A stretch of 64,000 nt of DNA from NCBI RefSeq assembly GCF_056746865.1, contig NZ_JBWKMP010000002.1; one strand, written 5' to 3'. Source of the stretch: a plasmid. Positions 7,074 through 63,659 of this stretch are shown piece by piece (positions within the stretch are counted from its first letter, which is position 1; each line of letters begins with the position of its first letter). The position numbers were made by a program, and so were the translations under genes. A model generated the notes under the pieces. The model saw only the letters and a program-made list of their open reading frames with translations. It was not told the origin of the DNA and did no database searches.

Positions 7074-7304
7074 ATTTTTCTCACTAGCACTGAAGAATAT
7101 TTTTACTAAGTAGATACACCTCTATCCAAGTAACTATTATCCATGTTTTTCAACGCTCGGAAGTCTGCAAACTAACCTAATATTAACCTATAAGGATGTT
7201 AATTTCTCAGCATGTAGACGCAGCCTTGTTAGCGGCCATGAAAGATACCTTTGTAGCAAAGTTACTTTCCGGTATTAATTTTTCAAAGGTCCAATTGTTG
7301 GGCA

Positions 7305-7340
7305 TAAAAAAGCCGGGACAAAATGTCCCGGCTTTATATT
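7305..7340. terminator. Bidirectional rho-independent terminator
   Basis: Hairpin GCCGGGAC-(loop)-GTCCCGGC flanked by an A-run upstream and a T-run downstream; immediately 3' of the 1434-aa minus-strand gene. Confidence 0.7.
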
Positions 7341-7350
7341 TAAAAATTTA

Positions 7351-10300
7351 TTACTCACTGCTTGGTATTGATACAGTGTTTTCAGACTTACTTGCCTCTT
7401 CAGCCGGTCCGAAAACTGTCACGTGCTGCGTTGCAAAGTCTCCACTATCATCATAAGCAATTACTTTTATGTCCTGCTTACCACGGTTAAGGTTTTTAGA
7501 AAGTGTAGCCGTACTACCGAAAACGTTCCTTAATTCGCCGTTGATGAACCATTCATATCTAACCATTTTTCCATCAGTATCATCACATTTATTGGTAAAG
7601 CTCCAGCTTAGGTTGGTTTCCGTGTAGCTCAATGTACAATTAGGCACTGCGTTTTTAACGACATCAAACTCAACAGATGCTGAACCTCTCTGTCCAAGTT
7701 TACTAACAACATCAATTGTGATCTCGTATTTCTTTTCTTTTAAACCCGAAATCAGTTGAGCCCAATAATTTTTGCCGCTGGGTATTACCTCACCGTTCAC
7801 CTTGTATGTGACCGTATCTATCGAGTCCGCCGAATGAGATAGCTTGATGTTTGACCTTAAGGTTACATCGAGTGGAGCTCTCATATATTTGTTAGAGAAC
7901 TTGGGTGTCATCTCAACGTTCATTGGCGTTTGTTCATCGACAACAAAGGTATTTTCGATACGCTGTTCATTGTTGCGGTTATCTTTGAAAACAACCATCA
8001 ATGTATATTTGCCAGGATTTTCAATTGTAAATTCTTTGGTGTCACCTTCATCTTTAGTGATTACCAGATTCTCTTTGTCGTAAATCCATTCTCGGGAATA
8101 AGTAACACCAGGATAGTCTCCATCCTTAATACCGCTCAACGCAACGCGTAGGGTGGTCGGTGCCATGTCGTATTTAAGTTTGGAGCTTATTTTCATTTCG
8201 GGGAATTTATAAACCCACGATTTGACAGAAACTCTACGGGTAGAAACCGTATTCTCCTTATTGTCCGCTAACCATGCACTGTATTCAAAAGCAGCATATC
8301 CCTGTTTATCCAACATTTGCTCAGTAAGGGTAACAGACAGTGTAGAGCCTTTAAATGTCTGGCCATCCGGTGTTTTCCATTCTTCAACTACGTTATTACC
8401 ATTCTGGTACTTACTGTTAGGGTTCGTGAACTTACCTTCCAAAGTAACTTTTTGACCAACCTCTACCTTAGAAACCCCCGTTACCGAGACAGAAAGGCGC
8501 TTGGGTTTTGCGGCTGCCAACCGAGCAGACGTTTCCTTCCATGAAGACTCCTCTGCCAGTTCATCGAAATCAAGGTAACGCATCCGGGCATAAATCGTAG
8601 ACGGTAGGGTATCAGCTGAAGCCACAGTGTAAGTTGTATCTCCCTGCACCCAGTTGACTTTATCCTCTGACCAGAGAACCTCAGCGGTGCCTGCTGGTAT
8701 AGGCTCATCGTTATCAAGCAGGGTTACAGGTACATCTGAGCCCTGAAGAATGTCTGTCACATCTATACTGAGCTTAGGCTGCTTGTAGGTAACTACCGTT
8801 AAGGCATCTGTGTAGGAAACCTTAGATGTGAATTTATTGGTCATTTTTGCCCTATAAAGCCACTTTCCTACTTCTGTCTTTTTGATACTTACACTTCTCT
8901 TTCCGGTCATGTCGGAAAGCATATTCCAGGTTTGACCATTATCAGAGGACTGCTGCCATTCGGTGGGGGCAAGTGCGTCAGAGTTAGCAGTACTGGCAGA
9001 TTTGAAGCTTACCAGAGTACTAAGTGGGATCCTTCCGATAATAAGGCTTTTCGACAGGTTACCCTCCAGTTCCTCACCTTTATAGATTCGAATGCCTACA
9101 GCACTGGTCTCACGTTTCATTTCAAAATCAGAGAATGGCGATCTGACCTTAGCCACACCAACCAGACGCATATTACCCAGATCCATATTTTCAATTTTAA
9201 TCTTGGTTTCGACAATGCCCGCATCATTGACCGGCAATGCTTCAGTCAGCGCAGTTCTTTCGTATGTAGTTTTATAACGGCCTGTTTCTGGATCTTTGCC
9301 GTATACACTTTTTTGCGAGTATATCGTGACGTCCCATTCTCCCATTGTTTTACGGTCAAATGCACTTTTACGTGTGGAGTTGTTATAACGCCCCACTGTT
9401 ACCTTTAAGGGCACTTCAAGAGATGTGGCTGTTTTTCTGTCATCCACTTCCATCGATGCTCGAATATTGAAATCAGGCACCGTATATACGTTGAGTGTGT
9501 CTGTAGTTCTTAATTCTGGATCCTTTGAGTATTCTACAGCTATGTCAAAGACGTTCTTTGTCCACAATGGTGCAGCAGCAACCTTAACCCTTTGTACAAA
9601 GGTCGTTGCATCGTTGTTTGAGGAACGATTTTTAAATGACGTTTTGACAGCCTCAGAGCCGTTTTGAGAGACGATCATCGTAACGTCAGCTGGTACCACC
9701 TTCGCTAATATTCGAGCGGCCTCCCCCCCGGTCGTATAAGCCAGAGCAGTGTTCGGATTGATGCCAGCTATGACTTTATTCTTTTTGTAAGAGATGATCG
9801 GGTTGTATGGTAATTGTGTGGTCAGAGTACGGCGATTCCTTGCGGATACCGCTTTAGAGCCCTTCCCGTTAATCATATAGACTTGATAGTCGAGCAGATT
9901 CTCACCTGTTTTATTAAAGAATCCAGTTAGACCCGGGGTACGTCCTTTAAAATAGAACTCCAACCCATCAGGGACATTGTTCCACTGAGGGTAGCATGCT
10001 GTAACATCTGATTTTTCCCCATACCAGGCGAGGTAAGCATTCGCATTTTCCTCTGTGGTAAACAGAGTGCATTTATCACCAGCTGTTTGACTAAGCAGGT
10101 CCGTATACTGACGTACACGCGAGTAAAGAGTTACGTTTTTTTCCAGATTCTTGAGAGTGAATCCAGTAGGTTGATAAGTGAAAACGGTACTGAAATTAAC
10201 GTTTTTTCCATAAAGGTTTTCAGCCACCACAGTAATCTCGTGATCCGAATTAACTGCTAAATCGTCTCCAACCGGCAGGTAGTAAATACCTCTATAATTT

Positions 10301-61766: not shown

Positions 61767-62063
61767 ATGATCCATTCATTTAAAGACAGACGGCTTGAAA
61801 AGTTCTTCCGTAATGGAAAAACAACGGCAGGTATTCCTTCTGAAATTATTAACGCGATTCTGTGTCGACTCGAAACGCTGGATAATGTCCAGAGTGAGCG
61901 GGAGTTATTATCCAACAGCTTGCGTTATGAACGCTTAAGAATGACGTCAAACCGTTATTCCTCCATTCGAGTAAACTCTAAGTATCGATTATTCTTTGAA
62001 TGGAATGATGGCGCACATAATGTCCATTTGTCAGCACATGACTATAAATCGCTCATCCATTAA
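61767..62063 (+). CDS. higB: HigB-like (RelE/ParE superfamily) toxin
   Basis: 98-aa ORF beginning MIHSFKDRRLEKFF and ending ...SAHDYKSLIH, matching from memory the conserved N-terminal (I-x-SF-x-x-K-x-L-x-K-x-F) and C-terminal (DYH) signatures of plasmid-maintenance killer HigB toxins. Confidence 0.6.
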   Translation: MIHSFKDRRLEKFFRNGKTTAGIPSEIINAILCRLETLDNVQSERELLSNSLRYERLRMTSNRYSSIRVNSKYRLFFEWNDGAHNVHLSAHDYKSLIH

Positions 62064-62071
62064 GGTTAAAA

Positions 62072-63253
62072 ATGAAGCTATTTTCAATTTCATCCCGGGA
62101 TACAAGCATGGACGCGATGTTTTATATCCAGGCCAGTACTAAACAACAGGCAAGTTACATATTTAGTACCCTTTCCCCGAAGCCTACTGCGAACTGCCAG
62201 CTTACAGATTTGCAGAATGAGACGGTCGTCCCTTCCATAAGCCCTATTTCGCTTTCACTTAACCCCTGGTCGATCAATTCCCAGTCCCGAACCCGGGAAT
62301 TGAGTATGGCCACGCATGGTCTTAACCTGATCTGTGCAGTCACGGATGAGCATACCCGTCAGATAGTAGACTTTTGCGATAACCTTGGACAGCAGCTTAA
62401 GGATCCGGACGACAAAAGCGCCTGGGTTAAGCTCATTAATTCTGAATGCGCATTGCTTAATTCTCCGCGTTTATATCCCGTTCTGCTGGAGCCGGAGACA
62501 CCGGCACAATTTGAAATCTTTGTGCCAGCTCCGGAAGATGGCGATCACGACACGGTTATAGCCAGCGTTGTTGAAGAATGTTTCGGAGATGAATGCCGGT
62601 ACAGAGCAACGGACAAAGCTTTTGCAATGTCGGAAAAGCCAATCATCAGGCTGGAAGCACATTTCAATGACAAACGGGAAAAGGTTTTAGAACTGACCTT
62701 TTCCAGTTTCAACCTTTCACTTTCTGCGTCCGTGTATGAACACCAGCTACGTCAGATTTTATTACTTTGCGAAGATTTTGGCGTAAGGCTTCAGGGTAGA
62801 GCCGGGGCATCCTGCCACATCAATATGCGCAGCGCTTACCGTCGTCTTGCACATGTCGGCACCGGCTCTCGCCCAGGTGATGGGAGTGATGTGCGGGGCT
62901 ATACCTCATCTAAAGAGCAAAAAGATGTTAAGGGGCTGCTCGATAAGTCAACCAGGGGAAGTGAGCTTGTACCGGCGAGGCACGGGCAGCAGTTTAACGG
63001 TGTCTTAGTGAATGCCACACCCGCACCGGCCACGACGGGTTTTATATACCTGTCGCATGATTTTCCGGAAGGCCAGTTTATGATGACAGCCGAGGTGTTG
63101 CATGTTGGAATAACACCGGGCGGGATCTACTACATTGAAACACTGGACGGATACCGGTTTATCGTTACAGCGTTTGAAAAGGGATTAATGAACGGTTTAA
63201 GGGAGTTTTTGGCTGTAAATGAGGACTACTTTAAGTATTACCGCTGGTCTTAG
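62072..63253 (+). CDS. Hypothetical 393-aa protein immediately downstream of the HigB-like gene (atypical partner)
   Basis: Start lies 8 bp after the higB-like stop; no evident helix-turn-helix; much larger than canonical HigA antitoxins. Confidence 0.4.
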   Translation: MKLFSISSRDTSMDAMFYIQASTKQQASYIFSTLSPKPTANCQLTDLQNETVVPSISPISLSLNPWSINSQSRTRELSMATHGLNLICAVTDEHTRQIVDFCDNLGQQLKDPDDKSAWVKLINSECALLNSPRLYPVLLEPETPAQFEIFVPAPEDGDHDTVIASVVEECFGDECRYRATDKAFAMSEKPIIRLEAHFNDKREKVLELTFSSFNLSLSASVYEHQLRQILLLCEDFGVRLQGRAGASCHINMRSAYRRLAHVGTGSRPGDGSDVRGYTSSKEQKDVKGLLDKSTRGSELVPARHGQQFNGVLVNATPAPATTGFIYLSHDFPEGQFMMTAEVLHVGITPGGIYYIETLDGYRFIVTAFEKGLMNGLREFLAVNEDYFKYYRWS

Positions 63254-63659
63254 CGTCTGACCTGAAACCGGTAGGCCAGGGAAGGCAACCGGGAAAATGC
63301 AATTTAACCTGATCCTCTCCCTACCACTACCTTTACCCACGTATAATAGCCCGACCAAATTATAATGCCCGATCACCGCATTGGCTGAAACCACACATAT
63401 TCTTCTTAGGCCTCGCCTGATGAACTTCGACCACAAGACAAAGGAACGTAACTAATAAATAAAATTTATGAGCTGCACAAAAGTTACTTTTCCATAATGG
63501 CGCTTCACTTACATTGTGGTTTCATAATCATTGTTGGTATTTAAAAAGGATGTGTTCAATCTTAAATAAAAGGCGGTGTTTTTTTCTGAAAATTTGCTGG
63601 GAGGTTATTAGCTGGGGGTTGGGTAACAGTATAATAAGTACAGATGAAAAGGAGGTTTT

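Follow-up and report, generated by a model that had tools for sequence, protein, structure and literature searches.

A dispersed palindrome under selection on IncH plasmid backbones, a putative protein-binding site with orphan ParB-like proteins as candidate binders

Plasmids of incompatibility group HI (IncHI) are major carriers of multidrug resistance: multidrug-resistant typhoid on IncHI1, mcr-1 among others on IncHI2, and NDM-1 on the IncHI3 plasmid pNDM-MAR. We found no reported DNA target for the TrhR/TrhY-HtdA regulatory circuit, which together with H-NS/Hha makes the transfer of these plasmids temperature-dependent, though most plasmid genes respond to it. The question raised here by 64 kb of plasmid DNA (contig NZ_JBWKMP010000002.1 of assembly GCF_056746865.1, hereafter the window) is what binds a short palindrome, AAAGTNACTTT, that recurs along it. 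A first-pass annotation, made from the letters of the window, had proposed an operator of a plasmid-wide regulator and two ParB-like (PBL) proteins encoded in the window as its possible binders. The window is the backbone of an IncHI2 conjugative plasmid of the R478 type and is ~96-99% identical to R478. Three complete plasmids were compared with each other: R478 (IncHI2), R27 (IncHI1) and pNDM-MAR (IncHI3).

The palindrome occurs 19 times in exact form in the window, where 0.23 copies are expected. Chance expectation was obtained from dinucleotide shuffles (n = 100), none of which reached 19 copies, and from Markov models of order 0 to 5, which gave 0.13 to 0.8 copies. Allowing one mismatch raises the count to 29, against 4.7 expected. 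A one-mismatch search with shuffled controls had been proposed by the first-pass annotation for the whole plasmid, and in the window it bears out the enrichment. The seven copies named there are real, each lying within 1 to 4 nucleotides (nt) of the position given (Table 1). Its five "close variants" exist as well, four of them being exact when the centre of the core is read as N and only that at 40753 (AAAGTACCTTT) being a true one-mismatch copy. The sites listed were correct, and eight further exact copies had been missed.

The edges of the motif are sharp, as 19 of the 20 AAGTNACTT words in the window form part of a full 11-mer. Among the 19 window copies an A stands at position -1 in 12 and a T at position +1 in 14, which extends the word to AAAAGTNACTTTT. 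In the consensus of 187 copies from the three plasmids, rAAAAGT-W-ACTTTTy, the centre is A or T in 85-90% of cases, and the flanks are without conservation past plus or minus 2. The whole motif, called here the IncH box, is a 13-base palindrome with an odd centre, AAAAGT-N-ACTTTT.

Exact copies number 54 in R478, 46 in R27 and 87 in pNDM-MAR, with at most 1.5 expected in each, and IncHI3 has the highest density of the three. In an unbiased scan of all combinations of half-site and gap, the box was by far the most over-represented palindrome in each plasmid; the same scan yielded no second dispersed palindrome in R478 or R27. The copies are irregularly spaced on the kilobase scale, without the regular short periodicity of tandem or CRISPR-like arrays. 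They avoid accessory DNA almost completely (IS26, mer, sil/pco, Tn7-like, Tn10, tcu, NDM and CTX-M islands), and the box is a simple sequence signature that tells IncH backbone from accessory DNA. One exact copy in accessory DNA, at 115078 in R478, lies inside tnsA of the Tn7-like sil/pco transposon and may be a chance occurrence.

The recurrence of the word had been taken by the first-pass annotation as a sign of selection, and the whole-plasmid counts together with the comparison of R478 and R27 confirm this. The two plasmids can be aligned over just 113 kb, at ~75% identity. Both arms of the box (ten specified bases) are kept in R27 at 27 of the 35 R478 sites that can be aligned, whereas 1.17 would be expected from the local identity of 60-82% (Poisson P ~2e-27). 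The central base differs in many of the orthologous pairs. The arms of the motif are under purifying selection.

Ten of the 19 window copies are intergenic, in a window of which 21.4% is non-coding (binomial P = 0.003, on a curated gene list), mostly 100-260 nt upstream of a start codon. The bias toward intergenic DNA that had been anticipated is thus real, and the label "operator" fits only part of the set, because about half of the copies lie inside genes. Across the plasmids this in-gene share is 35-55%, within conserved genes, and the intergenic copies mostly precede start codons by 100-250 nt. All three reading frames are used by the in-gene copies of the three plasmids (39, 15 and 26 copies), so it is the DNA word and not a peptide that is conserved; a peptide origin was rejected for this reason and because synonymous positions are conserved. 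The favoured frame, AAA-GTN-ACT-TTN (Lys-Val-Thr-Phe/Leu), places the free centre of the motif at the wobble base of valine. It is used by 7 of the 9 in-gene copies of the window (8441, 10685, 12528, 17570, 31266, 38889 and 54491). The DNA word is placed where coding allows. We conclude that the motif is very probably a protein-binding site under strong selection.

An explanation without a dedicated binder would make the copies targets of a methyltransferase or nuclease, a recombination or replication signal, or a spreading mini-repeat. The backbones do encode several methyltransferases, one of which, Dcm-like, is unusually conserved (71% and 65% identity), and some copies lie just downstream of rep genes. 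Known Type II methyltransferases, however, fall short of a specificity of 11 to 13 bp, and restriction/modification targets are usually avoided rather than enriched. The copies are not a mobile repeat because their flanks share no homology, and a hairpin is not possible because the centre is a single nucleotide, the arms also being too short. The positional conservation of in-gene copies points to selection in place. Of the explanations weighed here we regard this one as the least probable. REP/BIME, ERIC and MITE-like repeats were likewise rejected, the core being of 11-13 bp, without flanking homology and with many copies in genes. A relation to Tus/Ter, considered for the shared GTAACT, was dropped: the motif is palindromic and occurs far too often, and conservation of the Tus homolog is poor (60% and 25% identity).

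The box extends beyond the three plasmids. In six more IncH-like lineages, located through protein homologs in Yersinia, Leclercia and metagenomic contigs, the same word is the top palindrome. A pair-pattern scan of one genome per species gave, among the matches listed, true dispersed matches on IncHI2 contigs only. Most of the listed matches were chance pairs in AT-rich genomes or periodic arrays, and where other phyla had loci with many copies, these formed arrays with periods of 21, 41 and 52 bp, unrelated to IncH. The motif is identical across lineages whose plasmid proteins are 25-50% identical, which a conserved host (Enterobacterales) protein, recruited or titrated by the plasmid, would explain simply. 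To our knowledge, no enterobacterial regulator has the consensus of the box. Against a host factor, the dense dispersed pattern was found, among the matches listed, only on IncH-type replicons and on one other contig (L148, described below), and chromosomal parS is equally invariant despite the divergence of ParB. The invariance of the motif therefore needs no host factor, and we give this explanation little credence.

Candidate binders are found on the backbone itself. IncH plasmids encode three orphan paralogs of the ParB family, each with an N-terminal cytidine triphosphatase (CTPase) fold and a helix-turn-helix (HTH). PBL1 and PBL2 lie in the window; PBL3 lies outside it (216013-217197 in R478), is kept in all three plasmids and was found by a comparison of their core proteomes. 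PBL1 and PBL2 are 30% identical over the N-terminal domain and the HTH. All three proteins match Pfam HTH_ParB (PBL3 at 1.5e-5), and PBL1 and PBL2 match TIGR00180 (parB_part) below its cut-off. A profile of the family compared with the PDB matched Spo0J/ParB at E = 2e-10 across the N-terminal nucleotide-binding domain and the HTH, Noc at 1.5e-6 and, marginally, KorB at E = 0.41. The AlphaFold2 model of PBL3 has a predicted local distance difference test (pLDDT) score >90 over residues 17-255, followed by a disordered linker and C-terminal helices. A Foldseek search with this model returned ParB-CTPgS, KorB-KorA 8QA9 (the best template modelling score, 0.66), Noc and Caulobacter ParB. The family has 734 representatives in public data at an E of 1e-10 or better. 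No ParA gene adjoins any PBL gene, the plasmid ParA being paired with a different ParB (Par1), and the description of the two window open reading frames (ORFs) as ParB-like proteins without a partition partner stands.

The three paralogs are not equal candidates. The core-proteome comparison found no separate PBL1 ortholog in IncHI3, and PBL1 is dispensable for the motif because IncHI3, with the highest motif density, lacks such an ortholog. According to the R27 microarray, PBL2 (R0042) ranks with the most strongly expressed genes of the plasmid, its induction coinciding with that of conjugation; PBL3 (R0104, by gene order) shows high constitutive expression and PBL1 (R0037) low expression (PMC7366339 supplement). 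As to the pair of binders first proposed, PBL2 is still a candidate, PBL1 is not required, and PBL3, from outside the window, is better supported than either.

This preference for PBL3 comes from the position of the boxes. Of the candidate regulator genes, only PBL3 is preceded by exact copies at a distance of up to 300 nt in each of the three plasmids. They stand at -101 and -228 from its start in R478, at -105 and -223 in R27, and at -121, -333 and -387 in pNDM-MAR, where six copies fall within 1 kb upstream. Copies also precede PBL3 in Yersinia (-109 and -210) and Leclercia (-257), and in an alignment of five lineages AAAAAAAGTWACTTTTTTT forms a conserved island in an otherwise poorly conserved upstream region. 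PBL2 is preceded by the one-mismatch variant at -91 in IncHI2 and at -95 in IncHI1 (R27 ~45096), and by a perfect copy at -117 in IncHI3, where ten copies are packed into the 3.6 kb between PBL2 and trhA. The site conserved in the PBL2 promoter region appears to be kept deliberately weak. On contig L148, a PBL homolog (32-35% identity) is the only protein in common with IncH within 21 kb. This contig carries 8 copies of the box with up to one mismatch, against 0.98 expected, and one of them, a one-base variant, lies ~100 nt upstream of the PBL start. Two contigs with distant PBL homologs, L149 and L150, were too short or chromosomal and so uninformative as to dispersed palindromes. L150, from a metagenome, bears at ~1930-1945 a different odd-centred palindrome of 6-1-6 design, CAAACATTGTTTG, ~150 nt upstream of the PBL start, which hints that the family generally uses 13-bp odd-centred sites.

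We therefore favour, as the probable explanation, a dispersed parS/OB/bisS-like site bound by an orphan ParB-family protein of the IncH backbone, PBL3 and/or PBL2. We infer that PBL3 is the most likely binder, possibly with its paralog PBL2. A dimer of the HTH protein would recognise the two 6-bp arms and leave the odd central base unread. Copies ~100 nt upstream of PBL genes would allow auto- and cross-regulation, and with 46 to 87 dispersed copies the protein would act over the whole backbone, in-gene copies sitting in whichever frame tolerates them. PBL might be a local repressor or activator, or might load as a nucleotide-dependent clamp and then slide to nearby promoters, like KorB, BisD and VirB. 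Both nucleotide-dependent clamping and the direction of the effect on transcription are what we infer at this stage. More tentatively, two or three PBL paralogs might load at 50 to 90 boxes, coat the backbone and link TrhR/TrhY-HtdA, H-NS/Hha and the temperature-dependent expression known across the whole of R27. It is similarly possible, without being the likelier case, that the PBL layer would amount to a BisD/VirB-like clamp system scaled to a 200-kb plasmid, with boxes within coding sequences.

Several observations weigh against a role of PBL proteins at the box. In PBL sequences the ENxxR box is replaced by x-G-N and GERR by GxCR, so that CTP hydrolysis, and perhaps clamping, is uncertain. 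On the supporting side, the GxxR arginine (R102) is invariant across 24 PBL sequences, within the block RQG-x-C-R. Judged from these sequences, nucleotide binding by PBL proteins seems plausible and hydrolysis doubtful. The motif is unchanged between lineages whose PBL orthologs are down to 25-35% identity. Between IncHI2 and IncHI3 the putative recognition helix of PBL2 is markedly different, and in that of PBL3 only His184 and Arg186 are invariant. In R478 and R27 the 1 kb preceding PBL1 and the 1 kb preceding PBL2 are free of exact copies. Scans for sigma-70 promoter and terminator consensus sequences around the intergenic copies found no more than in shuffled sequence. Finally, the region upstream of trhR carries copies in all three plasmids too.

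This last point leads to the strongest rival, in which the box would be recognised by a member of the known IncH circuit, either the activator pair TrhR/TrhY or HtdA. The circuit controls most R27 genes, which are derepressed when repression is lost, and the R27 paper names no binding site or motif for it. Boxes stand in the divergent trhR/mobI region of all three plasmids and upstream of trhA. HtdA, on the other side, is reported to work on TrhR/TrhY at the protein level, and htdA has no upstream copy in R478 or R27. Sequence searches of Pfam, NCBIfam and the PDB detected no DNA-binding domain in TrhR, TrhY or HtdA. A promoter activator would not usually have half of its sites inside genes. 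A conserved box is also lacking at some promoters that depend on TrhR/TrhY: no exact copy precedes the F operon, and the parM/phosphoesterase box is not conserved in R27. L148 has the box and a PBL gene, yet BLASTP matched no other IncH-backbone protein in its 21 kb. We consider this rival unlikely. The two readings may be compatible, if a PBL clamp were to deliver or assist TrhR/TrhY as in the case of BisD and BisC. For H-NS, which had also been put forward for binding assays, nothing in the analysis points to a role as binder.

The other ParB of the plasmid, Par1 ParB, belongs to a type Ia ParA/ParB system (18405-20659), and the copies could be its dispersed centromere sites. Dispersed palindromic centromeres occur elsewhere, in the phage-plasmid N15 and in secondary replicons of Vibrio and Burkholderia, and Par1 ParB, itself of the ParB family, is kept in all three plasmids (72% and 48% identity). 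Nevertheless, parAB and its flanks are free of the motif. The longest motif-free stretch of the window, 17570-28957 (11.4 kb), comprises parB, parA, the tandem array and trhC/trhV, and in R478, R27 and pNDM-MAR alike the 1 kb ahead of parA is without a copy. A separate array with a different repeat stands beside parA instead. In the window it sits between parA and trhC (21064-23606) with 10.4 copies of a 249-bp unit at 68% matches, has TTAA-N5-TTAA in each unit and is motif-free; in pNDM-MAR the array upstream of parA contains its own palindrome, ACAACnnnGTTGT, in 10 copies. This array is probably the Par1 centromere or an incompatibility determinant. Because the parAB locus is motif-free and has this array, the motif is not the Par1 centromere, and its identity as a partition centromere was rejected, the sites not being clustered at parAB. 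Binding by Par1 ParB is in our view very improbable.

Among known systems, KorB of the IncP plasmid RK2 was the comparison made by the first-pass annotation. Its 12 OB operators (TTTAGCSGCTAAA) are likewise 13-bp odd-centred palindromes dispersed over a conjugative backbone, promoter-proximal, distal and in genes, and KorB is a ParB-CTPase-family protein with an HTH. IncH differs in having 46 to 87 copies instead of 12 and three paralogs instead of one protein; PBL has no ParA partner and is not a partition ParB, as KorB is, and ENxxR is not conserved in it. No KorA-like or TrbA partner was identified. The comparison is apt for the design and does not extend to descent, PBL sequences being nearer to chromosomal ParB/Noc: the PBL system is not an orthologous KorAB system.

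BisD of ICEclc is closer in some respects, as an orphan ParB-like protein of a conjugative element with odd-centred palindromes inside genes (10.1101/2024.09.16.613209). It loads at bisS, activates transfer genes at a distance, depends on GxxR and cooperates with the activator BisC (10.1101/2024.09.16.613209). GxxR is invariant in PBL, and IncH has the separate activators TrhR/TrhY beside PBL as BisC stands beside BisD. ICEclc has two bisS sites against dozens on IncH, bisS and the IncH box are unrelated in sequence, and BisD carries a fused activator domain where PBL has its disordered linker and C-terminal helices. VirB is an orphan ParB-family protein of another large enterobacterial plasmid, the virulence plasmid of Shigella, which is AT-rich, thermoregulated and silenced by H-NS. 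Its target is a parS-like inverted repeat, and it works against H-NS (PMC3905869). In IncH, too, transfer is thermoregulated and under H-NS/Hha silencing (PMC7366339). VirB sites are few and upstream of promoters, however, and VirB is nearest to P1-type ParB, PBL to chromosomal ParB/Noc. Chromosomal ParB-parS and Noc-NBS, the best profile matches of PBL, have palindromes that are tolerated in genes and kept across deep protein divergence, and Noc has many dispersed sites. Their 16-bp sites are even-centred, the partners of ParB are ParA and SMC whereas Noc acts together with the membrane, and IncH sites, unlike parS, are not clustered at the partition locus.

IncC, a sister MOBH/MPF_F family, has its own dispersed palindrome, ACTTTCACATGTGAAAGT, which is 18 bp long and present in 7 copies in 40 kb. 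In pECO17386 these stand at 246, 3830, 4289, 9604, 12940, 23984 and 27399, one being 62 nt upstream of an operon of parA and a KorB-domain parB. It is a different, parS-like sequence, probably bound by the IncC partition ParB, and the IncC locus examined contains no copies of AAAGTNACTTT. The two families share the principle of the design, and the outer arms of ACTTTCACATGTGAAAGT, ACTTT and AAAGT, correspond to the half-sites of the IncH box with their order everted.

The box, present in 46 to 87 copies on the three complete plasmids and invariant in all IncH lineages examined, is a concrete candidate cis-element for thermoregulated transfer, and PBL2 and PBL3, two abundant and uncharacterised ParB-like proteins, are candidate trans-factors. 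If PBL proteins do bind it, no larger regulon of dispersed parS-like sites would be known from any plasmid, and ParB-family proteins would have been recruited to the control of conjugative elements a third independent time, after KorB and BisD; the system would also be a possible target against plasmid maintenance or transfer. We found no description of the motif in the searchable literature; an early mention in the original R27 genome paper is possible.

Table 1. Copies of the IncH box and PBL genes in the window. Each listed copy is 11 nt long. The last column gives the treatment of the site in the first-pass annotation.
Feature	Position	Strand	Context	Other plasmids	First-pass annotation
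Motif copy AAAGTAACTTT	4894..4904	.	inside trhU, 14 nt past start codon	R27 ortholog intact	missed
Motif copy	7258..7268	.	intergenic, rsp stop/trhF, 195 nt upstream of trhF	R27 intact	close variant
Motif copy	8441..8451	.	inside rsp, frame Lys-Val-Thr-Leu	R27 intact	missed
Motif copy	10685..10695	.	inside rsp, frame Lys-Val-Thr-Leu	R27 arms intact, central base differs	missed
Motif copy	12334..12344	.	htdF/htdK junction, 15 nt upstream of htdK	unconserved in R27	close variant
Motif copy	12528..12538	.	inside htdF	R27 intact	missed
Motif copy	15495..15505	.	divergent parM/phosphoesterase intergenic region	unconserved in R27	close variant
Motif copy	17570..17580	.	inside 173-aa hypothetical gene	R27 intact	missed
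Motif copy	28957..28967	.	intergenic, 100 nt upstream of htdT	R27 intact	missed
Motif copy	31266..31276	.	inside htdO, codons 3-6	one mismatch in R27	missed
Motif copy	34320..34330	.	intergenic, 253 nt upstream of trhA (pilin, first gene of AC transfer operon)	syntenic in R27 at 38320	close variant
Motif copy	35105..35115	.	intergenic, ~110 nt downstream of repHI2A stop	syntenic in R27 at 39447	named
Motif copy	38889..38899	.	inside 285-aa hypothetical gene between PBL1 and PBL2	R27 intact	named
Motif copy	45501..45511	.	divergent promoter region, 232 nt upstream of Ig-like gene 45733		named
Motif copy	45566..45576	.	167 nt upstream of Ig-like gene 45733; 65 nt from copy 45501	pair also in R478	named
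Motif copy	52267..52277	.	intergenic, ~110 nt downstream of Ig-like gene 52381-54801		named
Motif copy	54491..54501	.	inside Ig-like gene 52381-54801	R27 intact	named
Motif copy	59311..59321	.	inside Ig-like gene 58395-60812, frame 1	unconserved in R27	missed
Motif copy	63480..63490	.	intergenic, 259 nt upstream of ORF 63739		named
One-mismatch copy AAAGTACCTTT	40753..40763	.	91 nt upstream of PBL2		close variant
One-mismatch copy AAAGTCACTAT	36267..36277	.	311 nt upstream of PBL1, divergent repHI2A/PBL1 region	no R27 counterpart	
PBL1	36578..37633	+	orphan ParB-like, 351 aa; unlikely binder		
PBL2	40844..42007	+	orphan ParB-like, 387 aa; candidate binder	R27 R0042	

Some observations concern the surroundings of the boxes. 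Over 1,100 Enterobacteriaceae plasmids, typed as IncHI2A, MOBH and MPF_F, matched a 14-kb segment of the window at 95-100% identity; no phage did. The window contains the Tra2 transfer genes from trhN to trhA, parM/R, the Par1 genes parA and parB with the 249-bp x10 tandem array, the RepHI2A and RepHI2 replicons, a Dam methylase gene, a DUF4942 gene, three immunoglobulin-like (Ig-like) genes and the two ParB-like ORFs. The three Ig-like genes are paralogous (45733-48189, 52381-54801 and 58395-60812), and box copies lie upstream of, inside and/or just downstream of each; the two copies said by the first-pass annotation to precede the first of them are indeed found there, at -232 and -167.

In pNDM-MAR five boxes (27427-28683) lie in a 2-kb non-coding stretch just downstream of a RepB-family rep gene, and R478 and R27 have one copy each 33-111 nt past the stop codon of the orthologous rep. 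These boxes may be linked to the replication origin. A contig of the cyanobacterium Tolypothrix campylonemoides, without relation to IncH, carries eight dispersed copies of the same 11-mer in 14 kb, with two pairs 38-39 bp apart.

Compared with R478, the window shows frame changes in trhK, repHI2 and two hypothetical genes (31284-32559, 49297-50383, 16605-17442 and 17953-18342). Its Par1 parB (18405-19409) is broken into three ORFs, and the protein is just 66% identical to its R478 counterpart. The frame changes and the split parB point to indel errors of the assembly or to gene decay in this plasmid. The repHI2 gene is flanked by iteron-like arrays at 48556-49057 and 50872-51612 (21-bp units; 81-bp units in 9 copies).

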